Shown piece by piece: positions 19,022 to 41,698 of a stretch of 64,000 nucleotides of DNA (its first letter is position 1; the number at the start of each line of letters is the position of its first letter). This DNA comes from a virus. The notes under the pieces were generated by a model. It was not told the DNA's origin, made no database searches, and saw only the letters and a list, made by a program, of their open reading frames with translations. Where the stretch lies: positions 1 to 64,000 of the IMG/VR virus record IMGVR_UViG_3300049215_000496; one strand, written 5' to 3'. Position numbers and translations under genes: made by a program.

Positions 19022-19103
19022 CGCATTATCCTACGAGGTTGAGCGGACCTGTGTCAATGCAAGCACTTGACCACAAGGCCACTCGTACCGCATCCTGTTG
19101 ATC

Positions 19104-20105
19104 GTGCTCTACGATTCGGCCGCGACGCTTCGCGCACACAGCGTGCGCACGCTCAAAGATCGCGTGGTGTATCTGCGCAAGTTGGTTTGGTGGGGGGACG
19201 GGGCGTTTCGACGGGGCGGTCCCCCAACGGGCGGCTTGCGCGATGCGATGATGCGGCAGATCGGTCTCGCTGTCACAGAGTCGTGCCGCGCACGCGACGA
19301 CATGTGTGAGTTGTCGTCGATCTTCGAATTCGTGAAGCGCAACGTACGGTACACAGGCGACATCAGTGACAAGGACACGTTTCAGTCTGCGTACAGAACG
19401 TTGCAGTACGGCGGCGGAGATTGTCTGCCACTGGACACAATTGTATGCAAAGCTGTTGCCGGTACAGTAACCCCAACGTTTGTTCCGTTGTACACGATCA
19501 TGGAAGGTGATCGGATCATGGCTAATGGCGCGGGAAATTGGACCCGCGTGTTGAAGTGTTGGTTTACAGGGCTGAAACAGATTTTAGTGTTCGAACTGAG
19601 CAATGGAACGGCACTTCGCTGCTCGCCAGAGCACAGACTTCTGTTTTTAAACGGTGGTGAGATTCGTGCCGCTCGCATTGAGGTTGGCGATCAGCTTCTT
19701 ACGCCGCGAAATGAGATACCATTAGAACACGGTACAATTCCTGTTTCGCTTGAAGGTGTTCGTGTTGTAGCTATAAAGGCTGATAAACATGCCAAGTTGT
19801 GCATGGATATAACAACAGATGCAGGTATGTTTTGGCTTCCAGAATCGGATGTGTTAGTTCACAACTGTGACGATCATTCTGTTCTCAACGCCGTGCTTGC
19901 AATGGAGAACGGATTCAGCACGCGCTTTCGCATAACAAGCAACACAGGCGCAACGTGGGACCACATATTCTGTATGGCCGGCGTTCCAAAAGGATCGCCG
20001 CGTAAGTGGGTGGCGCTCGACACGACGTTGCCGGGATCGAACAAGTTCGGTGTGCAACCACCGATGGTGAAGTATCAAGACTTCGATGTGACGGAGGCAA
20101 AGTGA
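19104..20105 (+). CDS. Transglutaminase-like cysteine protease, intein-containing
   Basis: IFEFVKRNVRYTGD, TLQYGGGD|CDDHS (after splicing), WDHIF, WVALDTT: Cys-His-Asp triad pattern. Confidence 0.8.
   Translation: MLYDSAATLRAHSVRTLKDRVVYLRKLVWWGDGAFRRGGPPTGGLRDAMMRQIGLAVTESCRARDDMCELSSIFEFVKRNVRYTGDISDKDTFQSAYRTLQYGGGDCLPLDTIVCKAVAGTVTPTFVPLYTIMEGDRIMANGAGNWTRVLKCWFTGLKQILVFELSNGTALRCSPEHRLLFLNGGEIRAARIEVGDQLLTPRNEIPLEHGTIPVSLEGVRVVAIKADKHAKLCMDITTDAGMFWLPESDVLVHNCDDHSVLNAVLAMENGFSTRFRITSNTGATWDHIFCMAGVPKGSPRKWVALDTTLPGSNKFGVQPPMVKYQDFDVTEAK
19422..19865 (+). mobile_element. Mini-intein (148 aa, no homing endonuclease)
   Basis: Starts CLPLDT, block B LRCSPEHRL, block F CMDITT, ends VLVHN followed by +1 Cys. 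Confidence 0.9.
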
Positions 20106-20398
20106 AATCGCTCACGCGTGGTGAAGTGCGTAAGGTGTTGAAGAAGCTGCGCACGCTGGGAGTCAAGCCTCCGCGTGTTGGGTGGTGCGTAATGGTGATC
20201 GGGGGCAGTGATTCGGTTGAGCTGTGTCGGCATCCGCGCAGCCGTTTCATTCCGAATGACACAGGCTACCAGATCGTGACTCAGCGTCGTGACCACGGAC
20301 TGTTTGGCGCACACAGGAGCCGCCGCAAACCACTGACGGCCGCGCAGCTCCGCGACAAGCTTGCGTGCAAGATCTTCGGCGGCAAAGCGTGTCGGTGA
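20102..20398 (+). CDS. Small basic protein
   Basis: GTG overlaps upstream stop; contains GLFGAHRSRRK. Confidence 0.55.
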   Translation: MKSLTRGEVRKVLKKLRTLGVKPPRVGWCVMVIGGSDSVELCRHPRSRFIPNDTGYQIVTQRRDHGLFGAHRSRRKPLTAAQLRDKLACKIFGGKACR

Positions 20399-20613
20399 TG
20401 AACCATCCCAACGGCAACATGCGCACGCTCGTTCTCCCGTCCGGGGGCACGATCGACATCCCGTTGCCGGGATCGAAATCCAGCATCGTGATGCGCCCGT
20501 CGTCCATGCTCCACGACGCTGATGGTGGATCCAACATTCCGTTGCTGATCGCGGGCGTTGTAATCGGTGTCGCTGTCGGTGTCGCTGCAACGGCCTGGTA
20601 CCTCCGGCGATGA
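20398..20613 (+). CDS. Small C-terminally anchored membrane protein
   Basis: LLIAGVVIGVAVGVAATAWYLRR end. Confidence 0.6.
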   Translation: MNHPNGNMRTLVLPSGGTIDIPLPGSKSSIVMRPSSMLHDADGGSNIPLLIAGVVIGVAVGVAATAWYLRR

Positions 20614-20801
20614 ACAGCGCGCCACCAGCCAACGCGCCGACTCCAGGATTTCCTGTCTTCTGGACGATGTTCGGGCGGATAGTTGCGCAGATGCTCGGTG
20701 AGAGGGCATTCGCCGAGATCGTGGTAACGCTCAAGGACGGCAATATCCAATTCGTGCGCGTCAATCGAACGTATTTGCCTGGCAACCTGCCCAAGGTGTA
20801 G
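20610..20801 (+). CDS. Small protein resembling DUF2292/YezD family
   Basis: FAEIVVTLKDGNIQFVRVNRTY resembles the (F/Y)GxxxIxxxDGxIxxI hairpin pattern, from memory. Confidence 0.5.
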   Translation: MNSAPPANAPTPGFPVFWTMFGRIVAQMLGERAFAEIVVTLKDGNIQFVRVNRTYLPGNLPKV

Positions 20802-20813
20802 GCTTTTCGTGCG

Positions 20814-21470
20814 ATGATGTACCAAGCTGCACGATCGCTGGGCGCCGCGGTTCCCACAAACATCCTGCGTTTGCAGAATGCGCTCGTCGCGCTTGGGCGC
20901 CGGAAGAATGATCCCGCGTTGATGATCTCTGTCGACGGGCTTGTTGGTCCGCAAACAGTAAATGCCACGCGACGGGCGCTCATCACATATGTGGTTGCGG
21001 GTGCTGGATCGGCTCCTGCCAACTGGGGACGCACACTCACCACATCCACGCTCAGAGCAAATGCAACCGAGATTGCAGGGTACATCGAGCGTGCCGCGGG
21101 GATTTCACCCCCGGCGGCTCAAGGTGACGATGGCCTCATGACACCCGCGTCGTTGTTTCCCGTCCCGTCTACGCCGTCGGCTCCGACGGTTCAACATCCC
21201 GGAGGATCCATGCCTGCGTATCAACCACAACCGCAATACTACCCACCCACGCAGTACGCGCCTCCGGTGCGGGCGTATCCCCCGCAAGGATACGGCCCGG
21301 CACGCGGCCCTGGCGATCTGCCCACCGATCGCGCGACATTGGATGTCAAAGCGTTCATTCCAGCGCAGTATGAACACGTTTCGATTTCACCCTTCGTTGG
21401 AATCGCACTGATCATCGGCGTTGTGTCGTTCGTGTACGTGATCAAGCAGCACAAAATCGTCGCTAAGTGA
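20814..21470 (+). CDS. Peptidoglycan-binding-like domain protein with C-terminal TM
   Basis: LQNALVALG..VDGLVGPQT; Pro/Tyr/Gln linker; TM plus basic end. Confidence 0.65.
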   Translation: MMYQAARSLGAAVPTNILRLQNALVALGRRKNDPALMISVDGLVGPQTVNATRRALITYVVAGAGSAPANWGRTLTTSTLRANATEIAGYIERAAGISPPAAQGDDGLMTPASLFPVPSTPSAPTVQHPGGSMPAYQPQPQYYPPTQYAPPVRAYPPQGYGPARGPGDLPTDRATLDVKAFIPAQYEHVSISPFVGIALIIGVVSFVYVIKQHKIVAK

Positions 21471-21838
21471 TTGGCGCTATGGCTTTCCTGAAAAACCTGT
21501 CACTGTTTCTGCTCGGGTTGGCCTGCCAAGTGCTGGCATCCATTTTTCCTAAGTTGCAAGGAGCCTTGATAGGTCCCGGGTCCTTGCTGTTGTCGTTGGC
21601 AGATCTGAAACTTGTTACGAATGGCAGTTTCGTCAAACACATGACGCTGTTCGTGCTAGGAATAGCGTGCAATGTGATTGCGGCGCTGTTGTCTGCCAGG
21701 TTTGGATCTGCTTCAACAGCCCTTTTGCTGGCCGGAACAACGTTGATGTCGAACTCGGATCTGCGACGAATCCTGAAAGGGCCGGAAGTGCCCGCAGCGC
21801 CGATGGTTACACCGGACGTCGAAGCGAAAGCCAAGTAA
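21467..21838 (+). CDS. Internally duplicated multi-TM protein
   Basis: FLKNLSLFLLGLACQV..ADLKLV repeated as FVKHMTLFVLGIACNV..SDLRRI. Confidence 0.6.
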   Translation: MIGAMAFLKNLSLFLLGLACQVLASIFPKLQGALIGPGSLLLSLADLKLVTNGSFVKHMTLFVLGIACNVIAALLSARFGSASTALLLAGTTLMSNSDLRRILKGPEVPAAPMVTPDVEAKAK

Positions 21839-21841
21839 GGT

Positions 21842-22048
21842 TTACAGCAAAAACCCGTTCGGTTTTCGACTCAGTAACACCCACGCCGTCCCGCCAACGA
21901 GCCAGAACACCACGCTGTGCGCAACGACAGCGGCAGCGGCCTGTGTGATGTCGTGTTCGCGGTGCACGACTTTGCGCACGAGCATCGAGGCACCGGCGCC
22001 AGCGATTGATCCGAGCGCGACTGGAACAATGAACTTCCAGATAGCCAT
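21842..22048 (-). CDS. Small two-TM protein
   Basis: MAIWKFIVPVALG..; two hydrophobic helices. Confidence 0.5.
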   Translation of the reverse strand: MAIWKFIVPVALGSIAGAGASMLVRKVVHREHDITQAAAAVVAHSVVFWLVGGTAWVLLSRKPNGFLL

Positions 22049-22096
22049 TGGGGGCTCGGCAGCTGCAAGGCGTTTCACGCTTTCATATTCGCCGAT

Positions 22097-22126
22097 TTGA
22101 CTTTTCCCCGCAACTGCGGGCACACT
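22097..22126 (+). promoter_or_regulatory. Sigma70-like promoter for leader RNA copy 1
   Basis: TTGACT-18 bp-CACACT, 6 nt before ACATAA. Confidence 0.5.
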
Positions 22127-22132
22127 GGATGC

Positions 22133-22219
22133 ACATAACGGGAGGGTTCACCTCTCGAAACAGGCGATCAGAGTAACTGGCGCTCCGTGTAGGCACTCCC
22201 TACACCGAGCGCCTTTTTT
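22133..22219 (+). ncRNA. Structured leader RNA/attenuator, copy 1
   Basis: ACATAA, hairpin CGGGAGG/CCTCTCG, CGATCAGAGTAACTGGCG, terminator GGCGCTC-C-GTGTAGG..CCTACAC-C-GAGCGCC-T6. Confidence 0.65.
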
Positions 22220-22236
22220 CGTTTCCGGAGACCCAA

Positions 22237-22866
22237 ATGCTTCAGCACGGCGAATACGGTACCTACGGATCAATCCCTGCGCTCGTGATGCGCTCCGGGC
22301 AAATCCGCCCCGTTTCCCCGGACGACGCTCGACAGGATCTCAACACAGCGCATGTGCTGCGCATGACCGATTGGCGGATGAAAATTCCCGCCGAGCCGAT
22401 CGTCGTGCCGATCCCCGCGCCGCCGAGTCCGATCACGTCCGCTGTTGCACAAACCGTAACGGCAATCCCTCCGGCGCCGATCCAGACCGCGCCTGCCACA
22501 CCACTCCCCGCCGACGCGAGCGACAAGCACCACTGGCACACCGTGCACCGTGGTGGGGGCAGTCACGCGATGATTCGTGAGATCCAGCGGCTCCATCCGA
22601 AAGCAGGACTGCGCGGATCTAATGACGTCGAGCTGGGCGAGTGGAACGGACGTCCGATCGCCAAGTTCGAAATCGCGTCGAGCCCGCCGGCTGGTGGTGC
22701 CGAGATCGCCGCGGGTGCGATGCGCCAGGCTGCGCACGCATTGCGCACAAGCGGGCTCGCGTCGCTGCCGCCCGAGCTGATCGGCGGACCGCTTGCGGCG
22801 CTCATGCGCGGTGGTGCAGTCGAGCTTCATTTTCAGAACGGGGCCGTCGTGAGGACGGTTCTTTAG
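22237..22866 (+). CDS. Hypothetical protein, first gene of putative capsid operon
   Basis: GGAG RBS; Pro-rich linker. Confidence 0.6.
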   Translation: MLQHGEYGTYGSIPALVMRSGQIRPVSPDDARQDLNTAHVLRMTDWRMKIPAEPIVVPIPAPPSPITSAVAQTVTAIPPAPIQTAPATPLPADASDKHHWHTVHRGGGSHAMIREIQRLHPKAGLRGSNDVELGEWNGRPIAKFEIASSPPAGGAEIAAGAMRQAAHALRTSGLASLPPELIGGPLAALMRGGAVELHFQNGAVVRTVL

Positions 22867-22889
22867 AAACCACAACAAGGGAGAGAACG

Positions 22890-23015
22890 ATGGCCAAGAG
22901 ACATTGCCGGTTCGGTGTGAACAAGAAAACGAAAACGCACACGTGCTTGAAGCGCAAGCGCAAAGCACGAAGCCTGTCGGGGGCGCATCGCCATCGTCGA
23001 CGGCACTGCAGGTAG
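22890..23015 (+). CDS. Very basic 41-aa protein, putative DNA-condensing core protein
   Basis: MAKRHCRFGVNKKTKTHTCLKRKRKARSLSGAHRHRRRHCR with AAGGGAG RBS. Confidence 0.6.
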   Translation: MAKRHCRFGVNKKTKTHTCLKRKRKARSLSGAHRHRRRHCR

Positions 23016-23064
23016 ATTCACCCCGCCACGCAGCAACCCAACTTCAAAACAAGGACAAAAGAAA

Positions 23065-23598
23065 ATGAATCTCGGACGACATCGACGCCGCGGCTTCGGC
23101 GAGGGTTTTGGCGGCCCTCACATCGCAGGACCACTCATCGGTGGTGGTGCGACGCAGATCGGAATCATGCTGGCGCATCTCCACGCCAAGAAAAATCCTG
23201 CAGCGCTTCGGCATGCAGGGTTGCACGGGGCTGTGCTCGGGGGTCTCGTTTCGGGACTGCTCGCGCTCAGCTCGAAGCATCGCGCGACAGGCATCTCGGC
23301 TCTCGTGACCGTGGGCATCATGACGGCGCCTCGAATTCTGGAAGGCTTCATGGGTCTCGGGCACCGTCAAGAGCAGCTGAAAGAAGCCGAACTAGGCATC
23401 ATCACGCCGGAGCAGTACCAAGCGCTTTCGGGCGCCGGTGAAGAGCCCGCCGTGCAGCTGCTCGATTCGGGCTCGGGATCGACGGGCGTGTTGGGGACGA
23501 CCGTGGCGGAAGAGTATCACGGCTTGAGCGGTGCTGGTGACAGCCCCGTCGAGCTGCTGGGCAACGGCTTCGGCACGAACTTCCTGGCCGCGCAATAA
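23065..23598 (+). CDS. Putative major virion membrane protein
   Basis: AAGGA RBS; three hydrophobic segments; two LSGAG repeats; directly upstream of capsid candidate. Confidence 0.6.
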   Translation: MNLGRHRRRGFGEGFGGPHIAGPLIGGGATQIGIMLAHLHAKKNPAALRHAGLHGAVLGGLVSGLLALSSKHRATGISALVTVGIMTAPRILEGFMGLGHRQEQLKEAELGIITPEQYQALSGAGEEPAVQLLDSGSGSTGVLGTTVAEEYHGLSGAGDSPVELLGNGFGTNFLAAQ

Positions 23599-23722
23599 GG
23601 CATTCCGGACACGTGCTGCTGGTGATGCGGCAATAGTGCGTGTCCGTTTCAATCAATCCATCCGCATCAGGTCGTTGGGACCATACCGGCACAAGCCGAC
23701 CCCAACAGAGAGAAAATGACAC

Positions 23723-24511
23723 ATGGCGAATACTGGCACACTGACTGTGCGTGTTCGTGGGGTACCGTTCCCCATCGAATTCGCAGACTGGACGCACGAT
23801 CGTCTGTACCACACGGTGGAGTTCGAGGGCTCGGATGCCCAAGAGATCCAAGTGTTCATCGGAGCGGCGGGTTCGCCGATCCCCGGTGGAAGCCGCGTGC
23901 TGACGATCGTCGACACCAACATCCCGCGCTCGGGTGACACCGGGTTGCAGGAAGGCTGGGAGATGCTCATCTACTCGATCCAGATCGAGGTGGTGCGCGA
24001 GATGGGTCGAAACGCTGCGCAGCAGTCGTTCTCACTCCAAGACATTACGACGGCGGGTGGCGCGACGCAGTTCTCGCGCAACACGCACGTCGGCGGGTAC
24101 GATCCGATCAACGCCTCGGGCGGCGTGCTCTTCGACTTCCTGCGCAAGGTCTACCATCGGTTTCAGGTGAACCAGAAGGTGCAGAGCGAAGGTCCCGTCG
24201 AGAAGTATCCGCAAGGGTCGGGGATCAGCGTTTTCGGCGTCACCACGGGGTTGGAGGTCGCGAACAATGGCGTTCCTTCTCCTCGTGATCAGTCGGCGTT
24301 CGTTTTGCCGATCTGGCTGCGCCCGAACATTGCCTACGTGGGGAAGCTTGCTCCTCAAGCGGCGCTCGGGATTGGCGGTCCGGCTGCGGCGATGGGGCCT
24401 CCGTTCGCGACGGTTGGAGGTTACTTCGACTGGACGGGAATTCCTGCGACGAACCTCGGGTTTGACGTTCGGGAAACGCTCGAAGGTCTGTTGAAGCGAC
24501 CTGTTGTGTAA
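23723..24511 (+). CDS. Candidate major capsid protein (single jelly-roll-like, large)
   Basis: 262 aa beta-rich, strongly C/G-ending codons, followed by strong terminator; LYHTV..F..,TNI..G.L, EGL.KRPV end; fold is inference. Confidence 0.5.
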   Translation: MANTGTLTVRVRGVPFPIEFADWTHDRLYHTVEFEGSDAQEIQVFIGAAGSPIPGGSRVLTIVDTNIPRSGDTGLQEGWEMLIYSIQIEVVREMGRNAAQQSFSLQDITTAGGATQFSRNTHVGGYDPINASGGVLFDFLRKVYHRFQVNQKVQSEGPVEKYPQGSGISVFGVTTGLEVANNGVPSPRDQSAFVLPIWLRPNIAYVGKLAPQAALGIGGPAAAMGPPFATVGGYFDWTGIPATNLGFDVRETLEGLLKRPVV

Positions 24512-24557
24512 ATTCAACTATTTCACGCATTTAGCGTGAAGTTGTAGAATCCACTTC

Positions 24558-24600
24558 AAAACGCCCCGATGGCAATTGCCCATCGGGGCGTTTTCTTTTT
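24558..24600 (+). terminator. Intrinsic terminator
   Basis: AAAACGCCCCGATGG-caattgc-CCATCGGGGCGTTTTCTTTTT. Confidence 0.85.
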
Positions 24601-24627
24601 GCGGCACTTCGGACTATCCTTTCATCC

Positions 24628-25128
24628 ATGACCATGAGTGCAGACGCATCTCCCGCTCTTTCTTCTATGCTGGTCCAGCTCGGACCGCTGATTCACGGTG
24701 TGATGCAGCGGATCCAACCGATGCTGGATCAGCCTGTCGTGCGTTTTCCGTACGCGATCCCACTCGCGCGCAGTCAGGTGATCTCTGCAGGGCAGACGGG
24801 AGCCATCCTTGCACCGGCGGATTTTCAGTACAGCTTCGAGTATCCGTTCGAAGTTCACGAGCTGAAATTCTCGCAAGATCCCGCGCACACGTACCGCGAC
24901 TGGCGAATCGCGTTCATGGATCAGACGTTCAACCAGCCGCTGCAGAAGGCTTCCACGTCGATGGTCGCCGATCTCGTCGACGACAACACTGGCAAGTGGG
25001 TCTGGAAATTTCCGTGGACGATTCGGCCGAAAGGGGGCGGGTTCAACATCGTCGTCGACAACCTAGACACGGTCAATCCGATCACGGTCGACATCGCGCT
25101 CCTCGGGTACATGCTCCTGCCGCGTTGA
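24628..25128 (+). CDS. Candidate small capsid/jelly-roll protein
   Basis: ~166 aa beta-rich, ends ITVDIALLGYMLLPR; adjacent to capsid candidate. Confidence 0.45.
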   Translation: MTMSADASPALSSMLVQLGPLIHGVMQRIQPMLDQPVVRFPYAIPLARSQVISAGQTGAILAPADFQYSFEYPFEVHELKFSQDPAHTYRDWRIAFMDQTFNQPLQKASTSMVADLVDDNTGKWVWKFPWTIRPKGGGFNIVVDNLDTVNPITVDIALLGYMLLPR

Positions 25129-25130
25129 AA

Positions 25131-25550
25131 ATGGCCTTCGACAATCCAGCAATCGTTGGAGTTCGCGCTACGCCGGGATTTGTACCCGCGCCGAACTCCA
25201 AGCCGCTCGGTTCAAAGACCGGCGCCCCCCCGCGCACGCAGTTTTACAGCCGCCCGGTAATCCCCGCGACGATGCTCGGGCAGGGCGGAGGCTCACCGAC
25301 GCAAATCGTGGCGGGCACCGCGGAGAACCGCGTGGCAATCCTGACAGCACCGTTGATCGGCTTTACCGTGTACATCGGGGGCTCGGGCGTGACGCCACAG
25401 AATGGCCTTGCACTGACGCCAGGGCTCAACTACGAAGCGATCCTGCCAGGATTGCAGGAGCTGTTCGCGGTGACTGACGCACCGGTGTTCGTTCCGCTAC
25501 AAGTCCAGGTCGCGCCGGTACTGATGGCGGAGCGCGAACGGGAGACTTGA
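25131..25550 (+). CDS. Small beta-sandwich virion protein candidate
   Basis: NRVAIL..VYIGGSGVTPQNGLALTPG..LFAVT pattern common in phage structural proteins. Confidence 0.5.
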   Translation: MAFDNPAIVGVRATPGFVPAPNSKPLGSKTGAPPRTQFYSRPVIPATMLGQGGGSPTQIVAGTAENRVAILTAPLIGFTVYIGGSGVTPQNGLALTPGLNYEAILPGLQELFAVTDAPVFVPLQVQVAPVLMAERERET

Positions 25551-25554
25551 TCTC

Positions 25555-26133
25555 GTGCTCCCCCTGGCGCTGCTCGCCATCGCCGGAATGGTCACGGCGG
25601 CCATCAAGCTCACCGGTGGTCCGAATCTTACGCGCGTCGCCGCTGGACTGAGTCTGCCGCTTCAGTACGTGCAGCTCGCGTCGACGTGGGCGCGTAAGCG
25701 CAGCCTCCCCATCGAATGGGTGCTCGCGACCATTTTGGTTGAATCCGGGGGCAACGCACGTGCTGCTGGCGATGCTGACGGGCGGTCCGCCGGGCTCATG
25801 CAAGTAAACACCGTGGCGCACGCACAAGAAATGGCAGCAGCGGGCGTGACGCGTGCTCAGATGTTCGATCCCGCGACCAACATCGAATGGGGCACGAAGT
25901 ACATGGCTGCGTTCCGAGCGCAGATTCAAGCGGCTTTGGGTGGCCGCCGCTCGCCCGCGCCGCTCGACGAGATTCTGCGCTTGTCCTACAAAGGCCCCGC
26001 GGCGGTGCTGTCCGCGCTGAAGCGTGGCGAAGATCCAACCAGCACGATTTCATGGGCGCCTGCGGCGCTGTCAAACTGGCGACAGGCGATGGCGCGCGTT
26101 ACAGCTTTGACGCGCAGCAGATCAACGGCTTAG
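25555..26133 (+). CDS. Lytic transglycosylase (SLT domain) with N-terminal anchor
   Basis: VESGGNARA (catalytic E), SAGLMQV, FDPATNIEWGTKYM. Confidence 0.85.
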   Translation: MLPLALLAIAGMVTAAIKLTGGPNLTRVAAGLSLPLQYVQLASTWARKRSLPIEWVLATILVESGGNARAAGDADGRSAGLMQVNTVAHAQEMAAAGVTRAQMFDPATNIEWGTKYMAAFRAQIQAALGGRRSPAPLDEILRLSYKGPAAVLSALKRGEDPTSTISWAPAALSNWRQAMARVTALTRSRSTA

Positions 26134-26384
26134 TCAGACTGCGCAGACCGGCGTGCACACGCTTTGGCTTCCCAGAACTTCCTGAAAGCGCGATTGCCTG
26201 CTTCACAGCGCTGCTTGGATGGCTGCTGTGATTCCATCACGCGTTGTTCTTTGGTTCCTGCTTTCAGCAATTCAGAACAACTGGTGAGACGATCGGCACC
26301 GTACTCCGTCGCGCGATGCCGCGCGGTGTACATTTCTTCTGCGATACTGCGCAAGCACGCTTCCTGGTCAGGAAGGGCTTTCAC
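26130..26384 (-). CDS. Small Cys-containing helical protein
   Basis: ACLRSIAEEMYTA..RCEAGNRAFRKFWEA; paralog at 28143..28419. Confidence 0.65.
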   Translation of the reverse strand: MKALPDQEACLRSIAEEMYTARHRATEYGADRLTSCSELLKAGTKEQRVMESQQPSKQRCEAGNRAFRKFWEAKACARRSAQSD

Positions 26385-26495
26385 CTATGCAGGTAGCACC
26401 GGCCGACTATGATCGTGTAAAACTAGCACAGCGGCCGGGGGTTGCGTCATGCCCCGTCACAGGCGTAGAGTAATAGCCATGCGGGGGAGCCTCCA

Positions 26496-26975
26496 ATGAT
26501 CTGCCGGACCTACGTCGTCAAGATGCCCACCAGTTCCTCGTCTACGCCGTTGGACATCTTGGTGCAGGATTCTCCCGGAACGCAGGACGCGCCCATTGTC
26601 GTTGGCGATGCTGCGTACTACGAGTGGCGCGGGCGCCCGGTGCGCATCCCGGTCGAATCGGGAGGTGCACCCCCATCCGCCGCCGCCATCACAGCAGGGT
26701 TCGTGCCGCGCTTTCGCCTGGGGTGCCTGGTGAGCCTCACACCGATTCGCACGGGCATCGCATCTGATCTACCTGGCATGCAGCTTTCGTCGTCGCTGGC
26801 GTCGTTGGCCAGCACGGACGGCGGTCCGGTGATCAACATCCCGGCGTTTGCCGATCCTGCGGGTGGCCCTGCGATCCGCTTGACCGGTGGTGTCGGCACG
26901 GCGGGCGGGTACTACCTCGTGGCGTTGAGGATTCCCGAGGCGAAGGACGAGGACCGCGAAGGCACGGGCGTGTGA
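26496..26975 (+). CDS. Hypothetical protein
   Basis: RBS GGGGAG; promoter TTGCGT-18-TAGAGT at 26442-26471. Confidence 0.55.
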   Translation: MICRTYVVKMPTSSSSTPLDILVQDSPGTQDAPIVVGDAAYYEWRGRPVRIPVESGGAPPSAAAITAGFVPRFRLGCLVSLTPIRTGIASDLPGMQLSSSLASLASTDGGPVINIPAFADPAGGPAIRLTGGVGTAGGYYLVALRIPEAKDEDREGTGV

Positions 26976-27400
26976 TGATCATCTCCCTCGGTGCAGGCTA
27001 CCCGCTCGTCCCCGTGCCCTATCCGGATGACAATCCGGATCACGGGGGCGGCCCGATCCGCAAGAGCCCCAACAACGCGCTGCCCGCGCACGCCGGCAAC
27101 ATGGTGTATCGCACGCTGTTGCTCGTCACGCGTGAAGCCGAGGCAGGCTCGCGCTGGCCTGGTGATCTGTCCAAGATGATGTTTCTGCCCGACGGCCGCC
27201 TCGTGCCGGCCAAGCCGTACGCGTTCGATATGTTCAACGGTGCTGGTGAATCTTCGAGCGGCTTTCTTCACACGCTCGTGCCCGCGCTGTCGATGTTCGC
27301 GGGCGCAGGTGCCGGGTACAAGCTGTCGAGCAAGCATCGTGCGTTGAGCACGTTTGGTGGTGCTGTGGTCGGGGGAATTCTTGGTCTGATTTTTCGGTGA
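26972..27400 (+). CDS. Membrane protein with two C-terminal TM helices
   Basis: LSSKHRALSTFGGAVVGGILGLIFR end. Confidence 0.6.
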   Translation: MMIISLGAGYPLVPVPYPDDNPDHGGGPIRKSPNNALPAHAGNMVYRTLLLVTREAEAGSRWPGDLSKMMFLPDGRLVPAKPYAFDMFNGAGESSSGFLHTLVPALSMFAGAGAGYKLSSKHRALSTFGGAVVGGILGLIFR

Positions 27401-27404
27401 TCCT

Positions 27405-28115
27405 GTGATCGATCAGATTGGTCGACAACTGATTATGCAGCGCAACGGCGTGTCGTTGGGCGCTGCTAAGGTGCTCCCGCCCGCCGATCCAAAGATCGTG
27501 CAGGTATCGAACATGATACAGACCAATCGCCAAGCACGCCAGTTGTTGGGTATCGCCGCGACACACATCCAACAGGCGTATCAGGTCGTTGAAACAATTC
27601 CGTCAAATATGTGGTACGGTCTGCTGCGCTGGATGCGCTATTTCGATGGTACGAGTGACTTAGCTAAGCAGGCACGTTTGCTGTTGGATCGAACCAACGC
27701 ATACGCACAGAGAGTGTACGCCACGCTGCCTGACAATGACGCGCCAGTGTCTTCGATAGGCAAGAAACAAGTCAACACAGCGCTAGCGCAAGCTTCATCC
27801 AACCTGCAACTTGTGTCGTCATCGGCCAATGAGATTCACAAGAGCTTGATCGATGACTTGATCGATGCGGTGAACGCATGGATCGCTGGAAACGTGCCAA
27901 GCGGATTCCCTAAGCTGCCGAAAGCGACAGGCAAGATCATTGTCTACGTTGCAATTGGAGCTGCAGGACTTGTTGGACTGTTCGTGTTGGGCAAGCTGCT
28001 GCACACAATCGCGCTAGGGTCTGCGGAGCTGATTGAGGCAGAGAATGCTGCGATGGCTATCGCCGATGCGCAGCGCCGAAAGCGCAGCTCGCGCTCCGTG
28101 CTGTCGATTGCATAG
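27405..28115 (+). CDS. Helical membrane-anchored protein
   Basis: TM IIVYVAIGAAGLVGLFVLG; basic tail. Confidence 0.6.
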   Translation: MIDQIGRQLIMQRNGVSLGAAKVLPPADPKIVQVSNMIQTNRQARQLLGIAATHIQQAYQVVETIPSNMWYGLLRWMRYFDGTSDLAKQARLLLDRTNAYAQRVYATLPDNDAPVSSIGKKQVNTALAQASSNLQLVSSSANEIHKSLIDDLIDAVNAWIAGNVPSGFPKLPKATGKIIVYVAIGAAGLVGLFVLGKLLHTIALGSAELIEAENAAMAIADAQRRKRSSRSVLSIA

Positions 28116-28142
28116 CGGTCTTTTTTGGCCTATAGTATTTCT

Positions 28143-28419
28143 GTGGCCGGAAAACACAAAAAGATTGCAGTCGCTATCCCCTCGTGGGTAAACGCGCTCA
28201 CACCGAATGACGCGTGCCTGCGCAGCGTGGCTGAAGACGTGTACACCGCGAAAGCGTTTGCTGAAAGTTACGGGGCAACTGAAAAGTCCAAAGTGTGTGG
28301 GCTTGCTCAGCGCCGCGAACAAATCGCTGCGTATGTTGGAGAACTCGAAAGCGGGGGACAAGCTGCGCTGCCGAGAAGGTGATCGGGCAGCGCGCAAGTT
28401 CTGGGAGGCAACACAATGA
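28143..28419 (+). pseudogene. Frameshifted paralog of 26130..26384
   Basis: ACLRSVAEDVYTA..YGA in one frame and CVGLL..RCREGDRAARKFWEA in +1 frame; extra A in AAAA 28282-28285. Confidence 0.7.
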
Positions 28420-28580
28420 ACCCTCAAAAATCCAACGCAGGAACAGTGGCACTCGTGCTCGGTGGCCTCGCGGCTGTCGGAACGGCAGCAGCCGTAGCGT
28501 TCAGCGGAAGCAAGAAACCTGCCCCGCGTCTAGGATCTGTGCGCCGCCCCGTGCGCAAGCCCTGTGGTTGCGGCCGATAA
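28416..28580 (+). CDS. 54-aa membrane peptide ending KPCGCGR
   Basis: Own translation MNPQKSNAGTVALVLGGLAAVGTAAAVAFSGSKKPAPRLGSVRRPVRKPCGCGR; GGAGG RBS. Confidence 0.6.
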   Translation: MNPQKSNAGTVALVLGGLAAVGTAAAVAFSGSKKPAPRLGSVRRPVRKPCGCGR

Positions 28581-28621
28581 GCTTGCGCTCGCGGCCCGCG
28601 GCGTGATTCAATCGTCTGTGA

Positions 28622-28716
28622 ACATAAGCAGGTTTCTCCTGCATCACCGACGATCAGAATAACTGGCGTCCAGTGGAGTGGATGGTTTCAAACCACCCTT
28701 CCGCCTGGCGCCTTTT
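28622..28716 (+). ncRNA. Structured leader RNA/attenuator, copy 2
   Basis: ACATAA, hairpin GCAGG/CCTGC, CGATCAGAATAACTGGCG, long imperfect hairpin closing CTGGCGCC-TTTT. Confidence 0.6.
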
Positions 28717-28758
28717 GGCGTATCGCCGAAATGCACCACAAACACGGGGCAAAATTGC

Positions 28759-31700
28759 ATGTTAGACGGCAGTTACGTCACAGGTTACAACGCTGAATCA
28801 AACAATCTGATCCAGGGCGAGCTTGTACGAGTCTACGCCGTCGGGGGCCAAAAACGCGTTGTTCGCGCGCAAGCGGATGCCCCAATCCACCTCCAGGGGC
28901 TGATCGGTGTCGTCTTTTCTGGTGTGGTTCGTCCGGGGGGGCCTGTCGCGGTGGCCGCTGTTGCCAGCGCCGCTGTACGCATTCTTCTCGATGGAGGACT
29001 CGCGCCGCAGCCGAGCAACACACTGTATGTATCGGTGGTGAATCCCGGGCGTGCGACCACGATCCCGTCGGTTGGCACTCCCGCGATCGCTGTTGTATTC
29101 GATGCAACACAGTATTCCCGCGACAACTCGGTCGTCGGTATCCTGACTCAAACCGCGACGGGTTTGGTTGGAGGTCCCGGAGCGACCGGAGCTACCGGCG
29201 CGACAGGCGCGACCGGAGCTACCGGTGCGACAGGTGCAGGTGCAACAGGTGCAACAGGCATAGGCGCGACGGGCGCGACAGGTGTGACAGGCGCTACCGG
29301 ATCTCCAGGTGGCGCGACGGGCGCGACAGGAACGCAAGGCGCGACAGGTATTCCGGGCAGCCCCGGCGGAGCTACTGGCGTGCAAGGCGCGACCGGAGCT
29401 ACCGGAGCTACCGGAGCTACCGGAGCTACCGGCGCGACGGGCGCAGGCGCAACAGGTGCCACCGGTGTGCAGGGTGCAACAGGCACTACAGGGTCCGCTG
29501 GCGGGGCCACTGGTGCCACTGGTGCAACCGGCGCCACCGGCGTGGGTGCCACTGGTGCAACTGGCGTGGGGGCCACGGGCGCCACCGGGTTGACAGGCGC
29601 AACAGGATCAAACGGAACAGTAGGGCCGCCCGGTGCGGATGGATCTGACGGCACTGACGGGCTCGATGGCATCGACGGCGCTACCGGCGCGACGGGAGCC
29701 ACGGGTGTAGGCGCGACGGGTGCCACTGGTGTCCCCGGTAGCCCTGGTGGCGCGACGGGCGCGACAGGAACGCAAGGCGCGACAGGTATTCCGGGCAGCC
29801 CCGGCGGAGCTACTGGCGTGCAAGGCGCGACCGGAGCTACCGGAGCTACCGGAGCTACCGGAGCTACCGGAGCTACCGGAGCTACCGGAGCTACGGGACC
29901 GATGGGGCCTCCGGGCGCGGATGGATCTGACGGCACTGACGGGCTCGATGGCCCTCCAGGTGCCACGGGCGCTGGCGCAACGGGTGCGACAGGCGCAACC
30001 GGGGCACTGGGTGCTACCGGCGCGACAGGTGTCGGACCTGGGTTTGGATTTGCGCAACAGAATTGGGTGTCTCTTGTTGATGGTGTATCGCCGCTCGTTC
30101 CGCACGCGGATCATCAACACACAGCATTTCCATCCCCCGACATGTTTGTCGTTTATGCTGTCGATCAAGACGGAGTAGTTCTGCCGGGAAACGACACGAC
30201 AGGACAGCCTGGCACGTCCATTTATCAGGCCACGCCAGCATTGGATATGAGCAACGCATTGGCGTTTGCCGTTGCCACACCATACAAGACATTGGAGCAG
30301 GTTGGACGCCAACTTCCGCGTGAGGGCAACAACGCAACGCTGGTCGTACTGATTCGTCCGCGTATTGGCGGCGCTACGTATAAAAAGATCGATGGTGTGT
30401 CCGATCAAGACATGGGGTGGATGAGTCAGCTAACGGGTTGGAAGCGCGTACTGATTCGCGCAACCAACACCTTTCTGAACGACACTGCTGACAAGGTAGC
30501 GTGCGGATTCCAAACGGTAGCTTCTACATTCGCGGGCGGCTACAACGCACTGGCTGGCAGCACTCCAAGCACACTGAATTGTCAGAAACAGGGGGGAGCG
30601 GCTGCGGGTTTTCCTGCTGAAGCGGGCGGATCGAGCGCGATATCCGGCAAGCGAATTCGATTCACATCAGGCGCACTGATCAATCAAACAGCTATGATTT
30701 GGAAGAATACAACCACACAGTTGGTTCTTTCGAATGCTTTGACTGGAGTTCCGAATCCAGCAGACAACTTTTTAATTGAAGAGCCCGGACTGCACGTTGG
30801 AAACTTTACACACAGTGTGAATCATAACGGAAGTGCCGTCGCACTTGCAGGTTTCGGATCTACGATCGGGTCGGCTACAGTATATGGCCCTGGCGGCATC
30901 AACTACGCCGGCAGCGAATCCTCTGGTGACATATCTTTCACAGGGCTGTCAACAGCCACACTGACACGATCGTATACAGACGAACTTGGAAATGATGTTG
31001 TTGTAGGCGTATCGCTGCGCGCAGCAAGCAACGTGAGCGCGTCTCACATCGGTGATTTGACACACGCCTCAGGGTACACGCACGTTCGAACCGCAATATC
31101 AAACAGCGTGTCACTGAACGTTGGTGCTGGGTGTGTGTACAGGAAAGGTGGATCAATCCAGGCAGGTGCCGGGTCCAGCAAATACGGTGGAGCGGGCAAT
31201 GCCGCGTACATCGCCGGAAGTCAAAATGTCGCCGGAACACAAAAGCTGCGTGTGACACAGGCGCTTATTGCCGATGGATTCACCGGGGCTTTCGAGCTTC
31301 AGGGCATTTCTGGTTCACTTGTGTACGGCATTGATTTCGCGAATTGCACCGTTCCATTGATCGACTTTAAGTCATCCGGCGCTGTGTTTGACGTTGACGG
31401 CATAACGTCATTAGACGGGGGCAACACTAACACTGTATTGAATCTGACGTCAGGATCTAATCAGACCATAGCTGTTGGCCTCATAGCGGCGGAAATGACG
31501 GCGGCGGCAGCGCTTGGCGATATACGTATGGCTGGGTTGGAGATCGCCCCATTCACGCTATTGATCGATGCTAACTATGTTGACACAGTTGGCAACAACG
31601 TGTACGGCCAAGGTGGCATAGTTATATGTAACGATGTTGTTCAATCCAATGTTAGTGCAGGAACTATAGCAGCATACAGTGTATTGCGTGTAACCGGCAA

Positions 31701-34560
31701 CAATCAAGTGGCTCTTGCGCAAGCTCCTGCAAATATAGATGCCTTTGGGGTCGCCCAAATGGCTTCCTCTTCTGGAAATACGGTTCTGACTGCCGTGGCT
31801 GGTCCTGTGCCGATGTTGTTCAACGCGCCAAACCCCACGCCGGGTAACATCGCGTATCTGTCTACAACTGCTGGGCAAGCACAAGACACATTTGTCAATA
31901 ATTCTGTGCGCCTCGGACGCATTATCGGGCAGCTCAATGGCAGCGTAGGCTTGGTGGCGCTCGACATCGATCTGCAAACAGTATTTACCCCCGCTCCGGC
32001 CTCCGCCATGGTTGCGCTGGTTGACTACGATGCGGTGATCGCCAATGGAACAGGTGGATTCGGTGTCGCCAGTGACGTAACCGGGCGCTTCGGATATGCA
32101 CCTTCCACAGGCGTGCTTACCACAGACATTCAAACAGCGTTGAATTCCGCCATGCTCACGCCATTCAAAACGCTTGAGCAGGTTGGAAAATCGTTTCCGC
32201 GTGGAGCCGGAAACGGATCGAATTTGAGGATTTTCATCCGACCACGGATAGGATCCGCTCCATACCGAAATATAGCTAACACCGCAGACCAAAACGGTGT
32301 TGACTGGTTGTCCGGCATCAGCGGATGGAATTCCGTGGTTATTCGCGGTTCGCTGAATCTGACCAACACACAAGAAGATGTTACAACAGCCGGGTACTAC
32401 CCTACAGCAGGAACGAATCCTGGTGGGTACAATGTAACGGCAAGCACCGTTGGCGGTACAAGTTACACAACATGCCAATTGAATGGAGGTGGTGCTCCCG
32501 GCTTCACAGCTGAATCTGGTGGATGGTCCGTGCTACTAGGTAAACGTATTCGTTGGTCTGCCACTACTACCACGCCTGCGTTGAGAAACACCACGTCCGT
32601 GATCAATGAAGTTCTAACTAATGTAGGACTCGTTCCATCCAACCAAATATTTGTTACGCCGGTTGCATCGGATGTATTCTTTATTGAATCTCCCGGAGTG
32701 GTAGTTGGCAACTTAACACATTTTGCTGGTGTTAACGGTTCAATGTCTTTGACAGGTTTCGGCACAACCACGGCACTGCAAACACTGTCAAATGAAGGAC
32801 CGGCCACATACAACGGAATAACTGTGAGCGGCGTCGGGTTTATGGCCATCACCGGAGCAAATTCAGGATCTATATCCTTGAATGCTTTGGACTACAACGG
32901 AACGGCTGGAAACGATATAACAATCGGACAAGCTACAAACGTCATTATTCAAAACAGCGCATACAGAAATGTTCGTATGCGCATAACGAGTCCGGCTACT
33001 AGGGTGACGTTTGGATCTGGTTGTGTGATCAGCGGGCCGTTCGAGAATCTTGCCACAATTGACAACCGGATGTTCACGGTCGGTGGCCAATTTATTCCAA
33101 CAGCCGCGCCGCTGCGGTACACACAGTTCGTGTACGTGACAGGACAGGCTGCAATGAATTTGTGCGGTGGTGGTGGAAACATCGGGGGCGTACGAATTGA
33201 CAACTGTACGGCAGGCGTATCTTGGGGATTGATAAATTTCCAAGGAATTCCGTTTGCAAATGCGCCTACGGGCGAGCCCTCAGGTGTGTGGGCCATCGAT
33301 GGCCTAACAGGCAGCGGAAATACAGGATTTATTTTAAATAGCGGGCACACCGGAACGGCGCGCAATGCGGGATCTGATTTTACGGTAGCGTGGGCCGGTC
33401 TACAGCCCAACACGATTACAGCGAACCCACCGGTAGGAACGTTGCCTGCTAACAGCGTGTCGTGGGGAAATTGTCAAACATCGCTTGCACCCTTGCAACA
33501 CACTAATGTGTATTTAAGTGGATGCAATTTGACAACCAGTGGCATAGGCACTGTGTTCAAAGATGTAATCAGAACAACAATACATTCCACCGCCGTTGAC
33601 ACCGACATCGCACTGTTCCGCGTTGTAAGAAACGCTCCCGTAAATTCACTGACGTATTACAACGCCAATGCTGTTCCTGCTTCCGCGGATTTGTTGGTGA
33701 ATTGCACAGGAATAACTGGTGTTTCAATAAGTGATGGCGGGTATGTTGGACAGGACGTAATAGTAGCCACGGATGGTGTTGTTCCGATAGAATTCACAGC
33801 AATCCCTGCTTACACGGACGTTGGGCAACCAGTATGGTTATCTGCTTTGACTGGAGCTAATGCCGGAAAGGTACAAACAACACCCGGAACAGTACCGGTG
33901 ATGATCGGGACGTTATACGAGTGCTACGGAACAACGATAGGGCGCGTAAAGTTGAATGCGCTGCAGCCTCAATCGACATTGATAGGCGCAACTGGTGTAG
34001 CTGGCGCCGCTGGCGCCCCGGGTGCCGCAGGTGCCACGGGTGCAACGGGCGCGGGTGGTGTCGGATCACAAGGCGCCACCGGCGCAACGGGCACTGCAGG
34101 CGCCGCGGGAACGCAGGGCGCAACGGGCGCGACCGGTGTCATGGGTGCAACCGGGGCCAATGGCCCAATCACGCTCGCCACGTTCGCGATCGGGTATGAG
34201 AGCACTGTTGGTGTGCAGATACTCACAGGAATCACATACGGCCTTCCACCGTACACGATCACCACACCGTTCGGCTTTGCCATCCAATGGCGTGTTCCGC
34301 AAAACCTGAGCAACATCGAAGTTTGGGTTGAAACAGACAGCATCATCGATTTGGGTGCTGCTGGTTCGTTCACGATTGAGCTGCTCAAGAACGGTGTCCC
34401 TTCCGGAGCCGGGAATGTGATCAACAGCATCGGAGCAACCACGCTGGTTGGTGGACCGATCGCTTACGTCGCAGGCGATCGGTATGGATTCAATGTCACA
34501 GGTGGTGGCACCGTCGGCGTAAGCGTCAGCTTCACACTGTTCGCACGAGGTATTCCGTAA
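28759..34560 (+). CDS. Giant collagen-like fibre/receptor-binding protein (~1933 aa)
   Basis: Start set by paralogy with 36210 ([16 protein letters not shown]); long (GAT)n collagen tract; two duplicated TP(Y/F)KTLEQVG modules; second collagen tract; C-terminal head. Confidence 0.75.
29170..30030 (+). repeat. Collagen-like Gly-Ala-Thr repeats with 9-bp tandem arrays
   Basis: GGAGCTACC x4 (29395-29430) and x6 (29833-29886); block starting 29308 duplicated at 29746. Confidence 0.9.
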
Positions 34561-40637: not shown

Positions 40638-40802
40638 TCATCGTGTGTCATTGAACACCCGAAACCTGAAGCACGTAAGGCATTTCGGTTCTCCGATCAA
40701 CCTTCGAATCGTGTTATCAATAGTTTTGAGTGTGCTCCTAGCGAGTTCACGTTGACGTTTTTTAACGCGTCGGCGTTTGATACGTCGTTTACGTTTTGTC
40801 AT
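40638..40802 (-). CDS. 54-aa very basic protein
   Basis: Own translation MTKRKRRIKRRRVKKRQRELARS..CLTC; ATGA overlap with recombinase stop. Confidence 0.4.
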   Translation of the reverse strand: MTKRKRRIKRRRVKKRQRELARSTLKTIDNTIRRLIGEPKCLTCFRFRVFNDTR

Positions 40803-41515
40803 CTGGGCACCACATCCGGTTTCACTCCGCGCAACCCCAACAAAGCCCCGTCCAGTCGGGCCGCGGCTGCCTTGGTTCCTCGTGCGTATCCCAACGTGAC
40901 GGCGAGATTCCGGTGCCCGACGTGTTCCTGGACAACCACCGGCACCACCCCCGCCTCCAGCAAGTGCGTGACGATCGAGTGCCTGAATACGTGCGGATGC
41001 CGGCGCTCGACCTCAACACCGATCTCCTTGAGCACACTGTCCGCCAGCGCCGCGACCTCGTGCCGAGACACTCCCCAACGCTTGCCTGTCGTCCCGCAGT
41101 GATAGCAGTCGATCTTCTGGACCTGCTTGCTTTTGCTCGTCGTGAGCTGCCCCGAGCCCTGACACGGGTAGCAGTCCCCTGGTTGCGCGCTCGGGAACAG
41201 AAACGGCTTTTGTTCAACTGCGACGATGCTGTCAGGCTGCACCTTGAGCCACGGAGGGAGCGCGGCCCGGCACTCGTGCAGGAGAGCATCCCATTCGCGC
41301 TCGGCGCCGTGCTTCAGGTGCACCACACGGGCGCGGCTGTTGTGTGTGTCGACGTCCTTCAAGAGCTGCAAGCCGGGCTCGGACGCGCGGGCGCCCCACT
41401 CGTAGAGCCAGGCAAGAAGCGCGTACTCGAATGGGCCTCGGGCTTTGGCGACGGCGAGGGCACGATTGACCTCGTCGACTTCGAGCACGGCTTTCTCGTT
41501 ACGGGTTGTGGGCAT
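40799..41515 (-). CDS. Short tyrosine recombinase with Zn-finger insert
   Basis: GARASE (R), HLKHG (K), HVFRHS (HxxR), GHRN (H), GYAR (Y); CYPCQGSG..CYHCGTTG insert. Confidence 0.85.
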   Translation of the reverse strand: MPTTRNEKAVLEVDEVNRALAVAKARGPFEYALLAWLYEWGARASEPGLQLLKDVDTHNSRARVVHLKHGAEREWDALLHECRAALPPWLKVQPDSIVAVEQKPFLFPSAQPGDCYPCQGSGQLTTSKSKQVQKIDCYHCGTTGKRWGVSRHEVAALADSVLKEIGVEVERRHPHVFRHSIVTHLLEAGVVPVVVQEHVGHRNLAVTLGYARGTKAAAARLDGALLGLRGVKPDVVPR

Positions 41516-41698
41516 CGTCTTTGACAGTCTTAGGTGTTGAGCTTTTTCCACCAGCGAGCGCTGCACCGCCAGAAACTCACCTTGGAATTCTCCTTCTTGA
41601 CCACTGTCTGTTTCCGCTGCATCATCACCGCACACTACCTGCAAGAGTGGAGTCTTGCAAGAATTAAGTTACGCTACGTAACACTACGCACTGCGTTA

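Follow-up and report, generated by a model that had tools for sequence, protein, structure and literature searches.

A conserved gene block with predicted jelly-roll proteins in an 89-kb viral genome points to a large tailless bacterial virus

Among viruses with jelly-roll shells, PRD1 combines a single coat protein of the double jelly-roll kind with the FtsK-type ATPase P9, a protein-primed PolB and a linear genome of 15 kb, and genomes of the P23-77/SH1 group measure about 17-31 kb, against 89 kb in the virus described here. Prokaryotic viruses with double jelly-roll capsids remain below 20 kb (Krupovic et al. 2022). SPV1, a virus of an archaeal hyperthermophile with a circular 20-kb genome and no polymerase gene, has VP4 hexamers and VP10 pentamers, a lipid layer inside the shell and a nucleoprotein core (PMC8459092). 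A tailless membrane-containing bacterial phage, SSIP-1, is said to encode two coat protein types (PMC6356626). Here we analyse a stretch of 64,000 nucleotides, called the window below (positions 1 to 64,000 of the IMG/VR virus record IMGVR_UViG_3300049215_000496), in which a row of plus-strand genes at 22237-28580 is probably the core virion block of a tailless, jelly-roll-shelled bacterial virus. The window covers the first 64 kb of one record of 89,081 bases. Since the first 127 bases of the record are repeated at its end, and the source classes it under direct terminal repeats, we read the genome as complete and circularly assembled, with a length of about 88,954 bp. The stretch is present, whole or in part, in five DNA sequencing runs, two of which may be its source, and no RNA run is listed.

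Predicted folds of the candidate coat proteins

The gene at 23723-24511 encodes a protein of 262 residues, our candidate for the major capsid protein. Its AlphaFold2 model, built from a 57-row alignment, is a beta-rich single barrel with a predicted local distance difference test score (pLDDT) of 85.7 and a predicted template-modelling score (pTM) of 0.84, and suggests a jelly-roll fold. This model and that of the 166-residue protein encoded downstream find their best structural matches among the capsid proteins of viruses with an internal membrane, P23-77 (VP17/VP16) and the SH1 group being among these. In the second structural comparison of the 262-residue model, the top four of 982 chains came from SPV1 (8.8), HHIV-2 (7.9), SH1 (7.5) and P23-77 (7.1). 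The initial annotation had proposed two single jelly-roll capsid proteins at this place. The folds predicted for the products of 23723 and 24628 are jelly rolls, with P23-77 VP17/VP16 among the best capsid matches, but for the smaller one the role of second coat protein is no better placed than that of a penton.

The 262-residue gene is the most conserved of the block (median identity 73%, against 40-55% for its neighbours). In a large protein set we found at least 185 metagenomic homologues, on contigs of up to 132 kb; the best 120 of the 185 are 61-100% identical to the query and carry neither a name nor a Pfam domain, and an exhaustive search reached 59 cluster representatives, down to 27% identity. 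A PHROG scan of 57 family members returned one weak match only, and no Pfam family was assigned. The families of the 262-, 166- and 139-residue proteins all lack a Pfam or PHROG name and show no profile-profile relation to one another. In what follows we presume that the large jelly roll stands vertically in the shell, and we presume the capsomer stoichiometry likewise.

The 166-residue protein (24628-25128) was modelled from a 30-row alignment of syntenic loci (pLDDT 81.4, pTM 0.64). The model places a helix at residues 9-33 before an eight-stranded barrel, again a predicted jelly roll, so that the protein is a candidate for either the second coat protein or the penton. Its top structural match is 6h82_b, chain b of HHIV-2, over residues 39-173. 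We infer that this chain is the HHIV-2 penton protein, because the first 40 residues of that protein are described as disordered (PMC6414509). In HCIV-1, according to the same article, the penton protein VP9 has one barrel preceded by a helix of about 34 residues, and five such helices come together in a bundle on the membrane (PMC6414509). The model of the 166-residue protein resembles the sphaerolipovirus penton VP9 no less than it resembles a second coat protein. The helix-plus-barrel layout, the match to 6h82_b, the terminator that follows the 262-residue gene and the separation of the two genes in one relative (G002) speak for the penton; the sizes of the two proteins, which parallel P23-77 VP17/VP16, the adjacency of their genes in most genomes and the presence of an N-terminal helix in PRD1 P3 as well speak for the second coat protein. 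The leading structural matches are ties, less than 1 apart in Z, so we hold the two roles to be about equally likely.

The third protein, of 139 residues (25131-25550), is predicted to be a small beta-barrel and is a core gene in the three relatives used for whole-genome comparison (G002, G005 and G004). Its Atlas model has a pTM of 0.61, and the neighbours of that model are viral hypotheticals and cupins at template-modelling scores of 0.4-0.55. By features, the nearest named Atlas cluster is PRD1_P5_spike_N (0.90), which we take as a lead only. The protein is a candidate vertex component, as a penton or spike adaptor.

Gene order and conservation of the virion block

The block opens with a Pro-rich protein of 209 residues (22237-22866), the first gene of the coat-protein operon, which has no Pfam or PHROG family. 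Its homologues occur in 33 related loci (median identity 55%), G002, G005 and G004 included, and it may be a scaffold or membrane-proximal organiser. It is followed by an Arg/Lys-rich peptide of 41 residues (22890-23015) and by a Gly-rich protein of 177 residues (23065-23598), also without Pfam or PHROG family, whose two moderately hydrophobic segments at residues 51 and 74 suggest a membrane protein. After the 262-residue gene there is an intrinsic terminator at 24558-24594 on the plus strand (15-bp stem with nine GC pairs, 7-nt loop, T-run), predicted to end the coat-protein operon. It is the strongest of seven terminator-like sites in 21800-28800, a count that is itself unremarkable against the 6.8 expected from shuffling. 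Downstream of the 166- and 139-residue genes lies a lytic transglycosylase of 192 residues (25555-26133; PF01464 SLT, E 5e-11; bit score 42.6, cut-off 21.3), with a hydrophobic N-terminal anchor at residues 1-19 and PHROG transglycosylase/endolysin matches. The row continues with an acidic core protein of 159 residues (26496-26975; no Pfam or PHROG family; 36-41% identity in G002, G005 and G004), a protein of 142 residues (26972-27400) with a C-terminal glycine-zipper-like hydrophobic segment at residue 123 (PF05433, E 0.0024, below the cut-off), a protein of 236 residues (27405-28115; homologues in seven loci) with a C-terminal transmembrane helix (segment at residue 178, mean hydropathy 2.47), and a transmembrane protein of 54 residues with a basic tail (28416-28580; hydrophobic segment at residue 11; homologues in five loci). 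This is the order that had been noted from the letters of the sequence. Among the ten module proteins scanned with Pfam and PHROGs, SLT was the only convincing match. Four more transmembrane proteins are encoded immediately upstream (20365-22123), and hydrophobic segments with a mean hydropathy of at least 1.4 occur in nine proteins between 20365 and 28580. The many transmembrane proteins and the anchored transglycosylase are indirect cues that the particle may contain a membrane.

An open reading frame (ORF) of 25-60 codons with at least 30% Arg plus Lys, located just upstream of the homologue of 23065, between the Pro-rich and Gly-rich genes, was found in 46 of 47 loci, while 12.8% of random 730-nt windows from the same loci reach that content. 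The peptide encoded in the window has 41% Arg plus Lys, two cysteines, and the motif L-S-G-A followed by a poly-Arg tail. The peptides at the matching position in loci L003-L070 are 25-46 residues long, with 40-57% Arg plus Lys among the distinct ones listed, and share a CxFG...C...RRRRRR pattern; most have two cysteines, and many end in L-x-G-[AS] and a poly-Arg tail, the motif before the tail looking like a protease site. We predict that the 41-residue peptide is a protamine-like, DNA-condensing core peptide.

Searches with the 262-residue family retrieved seven loci in IMG/VR (five of which were also recovered by a single-protein scan), 62 in metagenome contigs and two in genome contigs. 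We compared the 69 loci from IMG/VR and metagenome contigs, which hold 62 distinct coat-gene sequences. A homologue of 23065 lies directly upstream of the coat gene in 39 of the 43 distinct loci with at least 1 kb upstream, and homologues of both the 166- and 139-residue proteins lie within 10 kb downstream in 15 of the 19 distinct loci with at least 10 kb downstream. One of the four exceptions is G002, in which they are about 25 kb away. The module is therefore conserved beyond chance. Inserts of about 0.5-8 kb separate the 262- and 166-residue homologues in L005, L016, L019, L025, L036 and L058. In the distant loci L067 and L089, with coat proteins 36-37% identical to ours, the transglutaminase-like protein described below still co-occurs, and in L089 a remote homologue of the 166-residue protein directly follows the coat gene (hhalign E 8.9e-6). 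L089, whose coat gene is 36% identical, may represent a sister group with smaller genomes. Two contigs with coat genes (L088 and L089) had been binned with metagenome-assembled genomes (MAGs), one of 107.8 kb with a MAG of Vicinamibacterales and one of 39.8 kb with a MAG of Alphaproteobacteria; we did not take this binning as host evidence.

The core shared with G002, G005 and G004 comprises the whole module, the fibres, the recombinase, the Dam methylase, the paralogues at 8102 and 47109, and several unassigned proteins, one of 661 residues among them. The PolA/helicase/SNF2/primase module (genome 56088-72635) is absent from G005, although the virion module is shared, so we consider that the virion module defines the lineage and that replication modules are exchanged. 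The lineage to which the virus belongs is uncultured and widespread, and its genomes measure roughly 90-130 kb.

The replisome of its own that the initial annotation had ascribed to the virus was identified by Pfam and PHROGs: PolA with a separate exonuclease, SF1 and SNF2 helicases, a DUF3987 primase-helicase and a Sak4-like annealing protein. The same searches identified ThyX, a thymidylate kinase and a Dam methylase, and further a sigma-70 factor, a tyrosine recombinase, a GH25 lysozyme, a 2OG-Fe oxygenase and a papain-like protease. Eight proteins match glycosyltransferase families of Pfam (three of them below the curated cut-off), two sugar-modifying dehydrogenases are encoded, and no tRNA gene was found in the 64-kb window. 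The genome also encodes an AAA+/VWA pair and a collagen-repeat protein of 1960 residues.

That collagen-repeat fibre (28678-34560, plus strand; PF01391 Collagen, E 6.9e-24) follows the module and has partial homologues in G002, G005 and G004. It is one of three giant fibre-like proteins, encoded at 8487-14488 and 28678-34560 of the window, and in one of the two repeat fibres a 126-nt (42-residue) tandem repeat was confirmed at 12645-13164. Because glycosyltransferases, methyltransferases and the 2OG-Fe oxygenase surround the giant fibre genes, their position suggests that the collagen-like spikes are glycosylated and possibly hydroxylated. Upstream of the module, at 19098-20105 (plus strand), a transglutaminase-like (papain-fold) protein matches Transglut_core below the cut-off, which its homologue in L089 passes, and may be a maturation protease. 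A papain-fold protease carries out maturation in adenovirus. An insert of about 145 residues in this protein gives a weak Intein_splicing match, also below the cut-off. The protein aligns with its counterpart in L005 over the full length, but with those of L003 and L004 in two contiguous pieces without residues 110-254; intein-free alleles therefore exist.

Several other core genes lie outside the block. The tyrosine recombinase/integrase (40799-41644, minus strand; PHROG integrase families, E 7e-15) is kept in all three compared relatives and may serve lysogeny or the resolution of dimers of a circular genome. Small paralogues at 8102-8482 and 47109-47585 of the window, both core genes, match the same place in each relative; the initial annotation had named 8102 among the proteins to be compared with jelly-roll capsids. 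At genome 76034-78918 (14034-16918 of L001) a core trio is kept in all three: a 118-residue protein with two transmembrane segments and a CPAC motif, a Cys-rich zinc-finger-like protein of 141 residues, and the 661-residue protein, which is coiled-coil and Pro/Gln-rich with an acidic tail and could be a scaffold or size-determining protein. A block at genome 84154-87964 (6154-9964 of L002), with a midasin/MoxR-like AAA+ ATPase, a DUF2201 VWA-metallopeptidase and a DUF6744 protein, is kept at 40-66% identity in G002 and G005.

Packaging, tailed-phage genes and competing explanations

The particle that we consider probable would be tailless and icosahedral. The 262-residue protein, as a vertical-type single jelly roll, would form pseudo-hexameric capsomers; the 166-residue jelly roll with its N-terminal helix would be either the partner coat protein or a membrane-docked penton, and the 139-residue barrel would sit at the vertices. 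The small transmembrane proteins and the anchored transglycosylase would lie in an internal membrane, from which the latter would open the peptidoglycan on entry, as P7 of PRD1 does. The 41-residue peptide would condense the DNA, and the collagen-like fibres would be the spikes. At a guess, the diameter would clearly exceed the 87 nm of SPV1.

Tailed-phage genes were looked for at several levels. Pfam (60 proteins) and PHROGs (30 proteins) detected no terminase, portal, HK97 capsid, tail tube, sheath or tape measure family, and a six-frame search of the whole 89,081-base record at E ≤ 1 detected no Terminase_6N, TerL_ATPase, Phage_capsid or Phage_portal, while control genomes did match the terminase, capsid and portal models. 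The lack of terminase, portal and HK97 capsid, first noted for 64 kb, thus extends to the complete contig. Relatives were covered as well: of five records between 94 and 121 kb in length, two with a completeness rating of at least 99%, none matched Terminase_6N and none Phage_capsid, the portal model not having been run on these genomes. Thirteen ORFs of the virus reach 400 codons. Nine have other Pfam families, two are the repeat fibres, one is the 661-residue coiled-coil protein, and one (12331-13632, minus strand) was not scanned and is read as an antisense shadow. Because only one ORF of this size is left unassigned besides the fibres and the shadow, a large terminase and a portal could not both be accommodated. 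The 661-residue protein was considered for either role and rejected, its sequence being coiled-coil and Pro/Gln-rich and its Atlas model poor (pLDDT 0.45), with no informative neighbour.

A packaging ATPase was sought in the same way. The initial annotation had noted the lack of an FtsK/HerA-type enzyme in the window, and in six frames of the whole genome FtsK_SpoIIIE and Pox_A32 gave nothing at E ≤ 1, nor did the PRD1 P3 coat model; FtsK_SpoIIIE matched none of the five relatives. Three proteins alone have a clear Walker A motif: the SF1 helicase, the SNF2 protein and the AAA+ ATPase. The last of these (genome 84154-85350) is 61-66% identical in four of the five relatives, has midasin and Cdc48 as its nearest solved relatives and adjoins the VWA/metallopeptidase protein; owing to this resemblance and pairing, the two would be a MoxR-type chaperone pair. 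A role as packaging motor, which we favour less, may still apply. A Walker-like motif (GYPRSGKT) beside the L089 coat gene was rejected as a packaging ATPase, since the protein that carries it is Gly-rich, membrane-type and without a Pfam family.

A number of results weigh against a tailless jelly-roll particle. No packaging ATPase of the expected kind was found in the genome or in the five relatives. Foldseek matches of the 262-residue model are weak (best PDB match at E 6e-3, none at E ≤ 1e-3); the PDB list includes the capsid of porcine circovirus 2 (PCV2), SPV1 and P23-77 VP17, and the best match in BFVD is a circovirus capsid at 5.9e-4. The 166-residue model has four matches at E ≤ 1e-3, all of them brome mosaic virus coats, so that the top Foldseek matches of both models are horizontal jelly-roll coats. 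Profile searches (profiles A1, A3 and A4) of the PDB, which includes the P23-77, SH1, HHIV-2 and HCIV-1 chains matched in the fold searches, returned no chain at E ≤ 10, that is, no solved capsid protein and no helvetiavirus coat homologue. In tblastn of the 262-, 166- and 139-residue proteins against 50,697 phage records, nothing was found at E ≤ 0.01 or E ≤ 1, and a single match, at E=4, is at chance level. When all six-frame ORFs of SSIP-1 were searched with four family profiles (hmmsearch), the lowest E was 0.022 and belonged to an ORF that is not structural, and hhalign against SSIP-1 gp45, gp47 and gp46 gave probabilities below 1%. Atlas clusters near the 139-residue protein are labelled Uroviricota, an automatic label, a 326-residue protein at 36210 matches PHROG tail-fibre families, and the 661-residue coiled-coil protein could in principle be a tape measure.

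These last three observations are what a tailed phage with HK97 capsid, portal and terminase too diverged for recognition would have in its favour, the jelly rolls then being decoration, cement or receptor-binding proteins. We think this very unlikely: the large terminase, normally detectable, is unmatched in six frames and in five relatives, no capsid or portal model matched the genome and no capsid model the relatives, unassigned ORFs of at least 400 codons are too few for terminase plus portal, and the clear P-loops all belong to the three enzymes named above. Another morphology, for instance a pleomorphic or enveloped virus or mobile element with the jelly rolls as surface or spike proteins, would accommodate the many membrane proteins, the giant glycosylated fibres, the integrase-like core recombinase and the failure to find a packaging motor. 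It is nevertheless highly improbable, in that the best structural matches are to proteins that form shells, conservation as extreme as that of the 262-residue protein is typical of a coat protein, and the lytic enzymes SLT and GH25 fit a lytic virus of a walled host.

If the block does belong to a tailless jelly-roll virus, its shell could be organised in two ways. In a shell of the portoglobovirus type, the 262-residue protein would form homohexamers as SPV1 VP4 does, the 166-residue protein would form membrane-docked pentons, and the genome, condensed by the Arg-rich peptide, would be enclosed without a motor. This is a plausible arrangement that we hold tentatively. SPV1, built as described above, lacks a packaging ATPase and none was found here, the peptide ORF accompanies the coat-protein operon in all but one of the loci, and the 166-residue model matches 6h82_b best; yet that chain is a penton by our own reading, the leading matches are tied, SPV1 is a 20-kb archaeal virus without sequence similarity to ours, and the MoxR/midasin-like ATPase of four of the five relatives may be a motor. 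In a shell of the helvetiavirus type, the 262- and 166-residue proteins would be the large and small coat proteins, paired as heterodimers in mixed pseudo-hexamers like those of P23-77 (VP17/VP16) and SH1/HCIV-1 (VP4/VP7), and the 139-residue protein would be the penton. Their sizes resemble those of the large and small coats of the P23-77 and SH1 groups, both models are jelly rolls that match these proteins, 15 of 19 loci have the two genes close together and L089 has them directly adjacent, and the 139-residue protein has about the size of the PRD1 penton P31, besides its Atlas lead to PRD1 P5. We rate this arrangement only slightly below the first, given that the order large-then-small reverses that of helvetiaviruses, that a strong terminator stands between the genes and about 25 kb separates them in G002, that the FtsK-HerA ATPase was not found in the genome or five relatives, and that the long N-terminal helix of the 166-residue protein fits the HCIV-1 penton VP9. 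A scaled-up bacterial design similar to SPV1 in every part, with homohexamers, a penton docked on the membrane by a helix bundle, a protamine-like peptide, no motor and a papain-fold maturation protease, is in our judgement unlikely as a whole.

Comparison with known tailless viruses

A literature search, with most subscription journals outside its reach, returned no description of this family or of large bacterial viruses with single jelly-roll (SJR) capsids. If our reading is true, a lineage of 90-130 kb would raise the size ceiling of non-tailed prokaryotic viruses at least about twofold over SSIP-1 (43.8 kb), and far more over SJR-capsid viruses. It would add a PolA replisome, nucleotide metabolism, a sigma factor, glycosylated collagen-like fibres and an intein to the repertoire of these viruses, and would show that such genomes end up in databases as tailed phages unless something speaks against it. 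It raises the question of how some 90 kb of DNA gets into a jelly-roll shell lined by a membrane when no motor of the FtsK/A32 or terminase kind is at work, and would bring new data to the discussion of whether capsids of two-SJR and single-SJR type are older than the double jelly-roll lineage. The 262-residue family, with its at least 185 members, could be used as a marker gene for finding these viruses. Should the scaled-up SPV1-like design prove true, the genomes enclosed by motor-less icosahedral assembly would reach about five times the size known so far, and an SJR-capsid lineage now small and extremophile-hosted would become widespread in soil and freshwater.

The closeness to P23-77 and SH1 claimed in the initial annotation is not upheld, as there is no coat sequence similarity and the defining FtsK/HerA ATPase was not found. 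The Helvetiavirae/Halopanivirales (P23-77 and IN93; SH1, HHIV-2 and HCIV-1) have many small membrane proteins in their module, as here, and their penton docks on membrane proteins by an N-terminal helix, a layout of helix and barrel that the 166-residue model shares. Their families (Sphaerolipoviridae, Simuloviridae, Matshushitaviridae) have in common, however, the FtsK-HerA packaging ATPase, which was not found in this genome. The coat-gene order of helvetiaviruses is small then large, whereas here it is large then small, with genes that can be separated. SSIP-1 has a circular genome of 43,788 bp, half the size of this one, with a giant structural protein (gp43, a 6,960-nt gene) and a row of further structural genes, gp44-gp48, of 399-771 nt. 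With PRD1 (Tectiviridae) the virus may share an internal membrane and, in the anchored SLT protein encoded here, a counterpart of the virion-associated lytic transglycosylase P7; unlike PRD1, both folded proteins are single barrels, and no P3 match was found in the genome.

With the Portogloboviridae, represented by SPV1, the likeness would consist of a jelly-roll coat with a separate candidate jelly-roll penton, a putative inner lipid layer and a circular double-stranded DNA genome. SPV1 has no packaging ATPase, and none was found here either; where SPV1 has a nucleoprotein core, this virus has the candidate protamine-like peptide of 41 residues as core protein. The differences are a genome of 89 kb, a PolA replisome and helicases of its own and no sequence similarity. 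Bacterial-type genes (sigma-70, the cell-wall enzymes SLT and GH25, Dam methylase) also set it apart from the archaeal SPV1, and it departs from the family's Sulfolobales host, genome of about 20 kb and lack of replication genes. The lineage appears to work like the internal-membrane jelly-roll viruses, and we do not claim its membership in any named family. Its combination of features appears closer to SPV1 than to the helvetiaviruses, and the membrane-lined jelly-roll shell that it suggests is known otherwise only from much smaller viruses.

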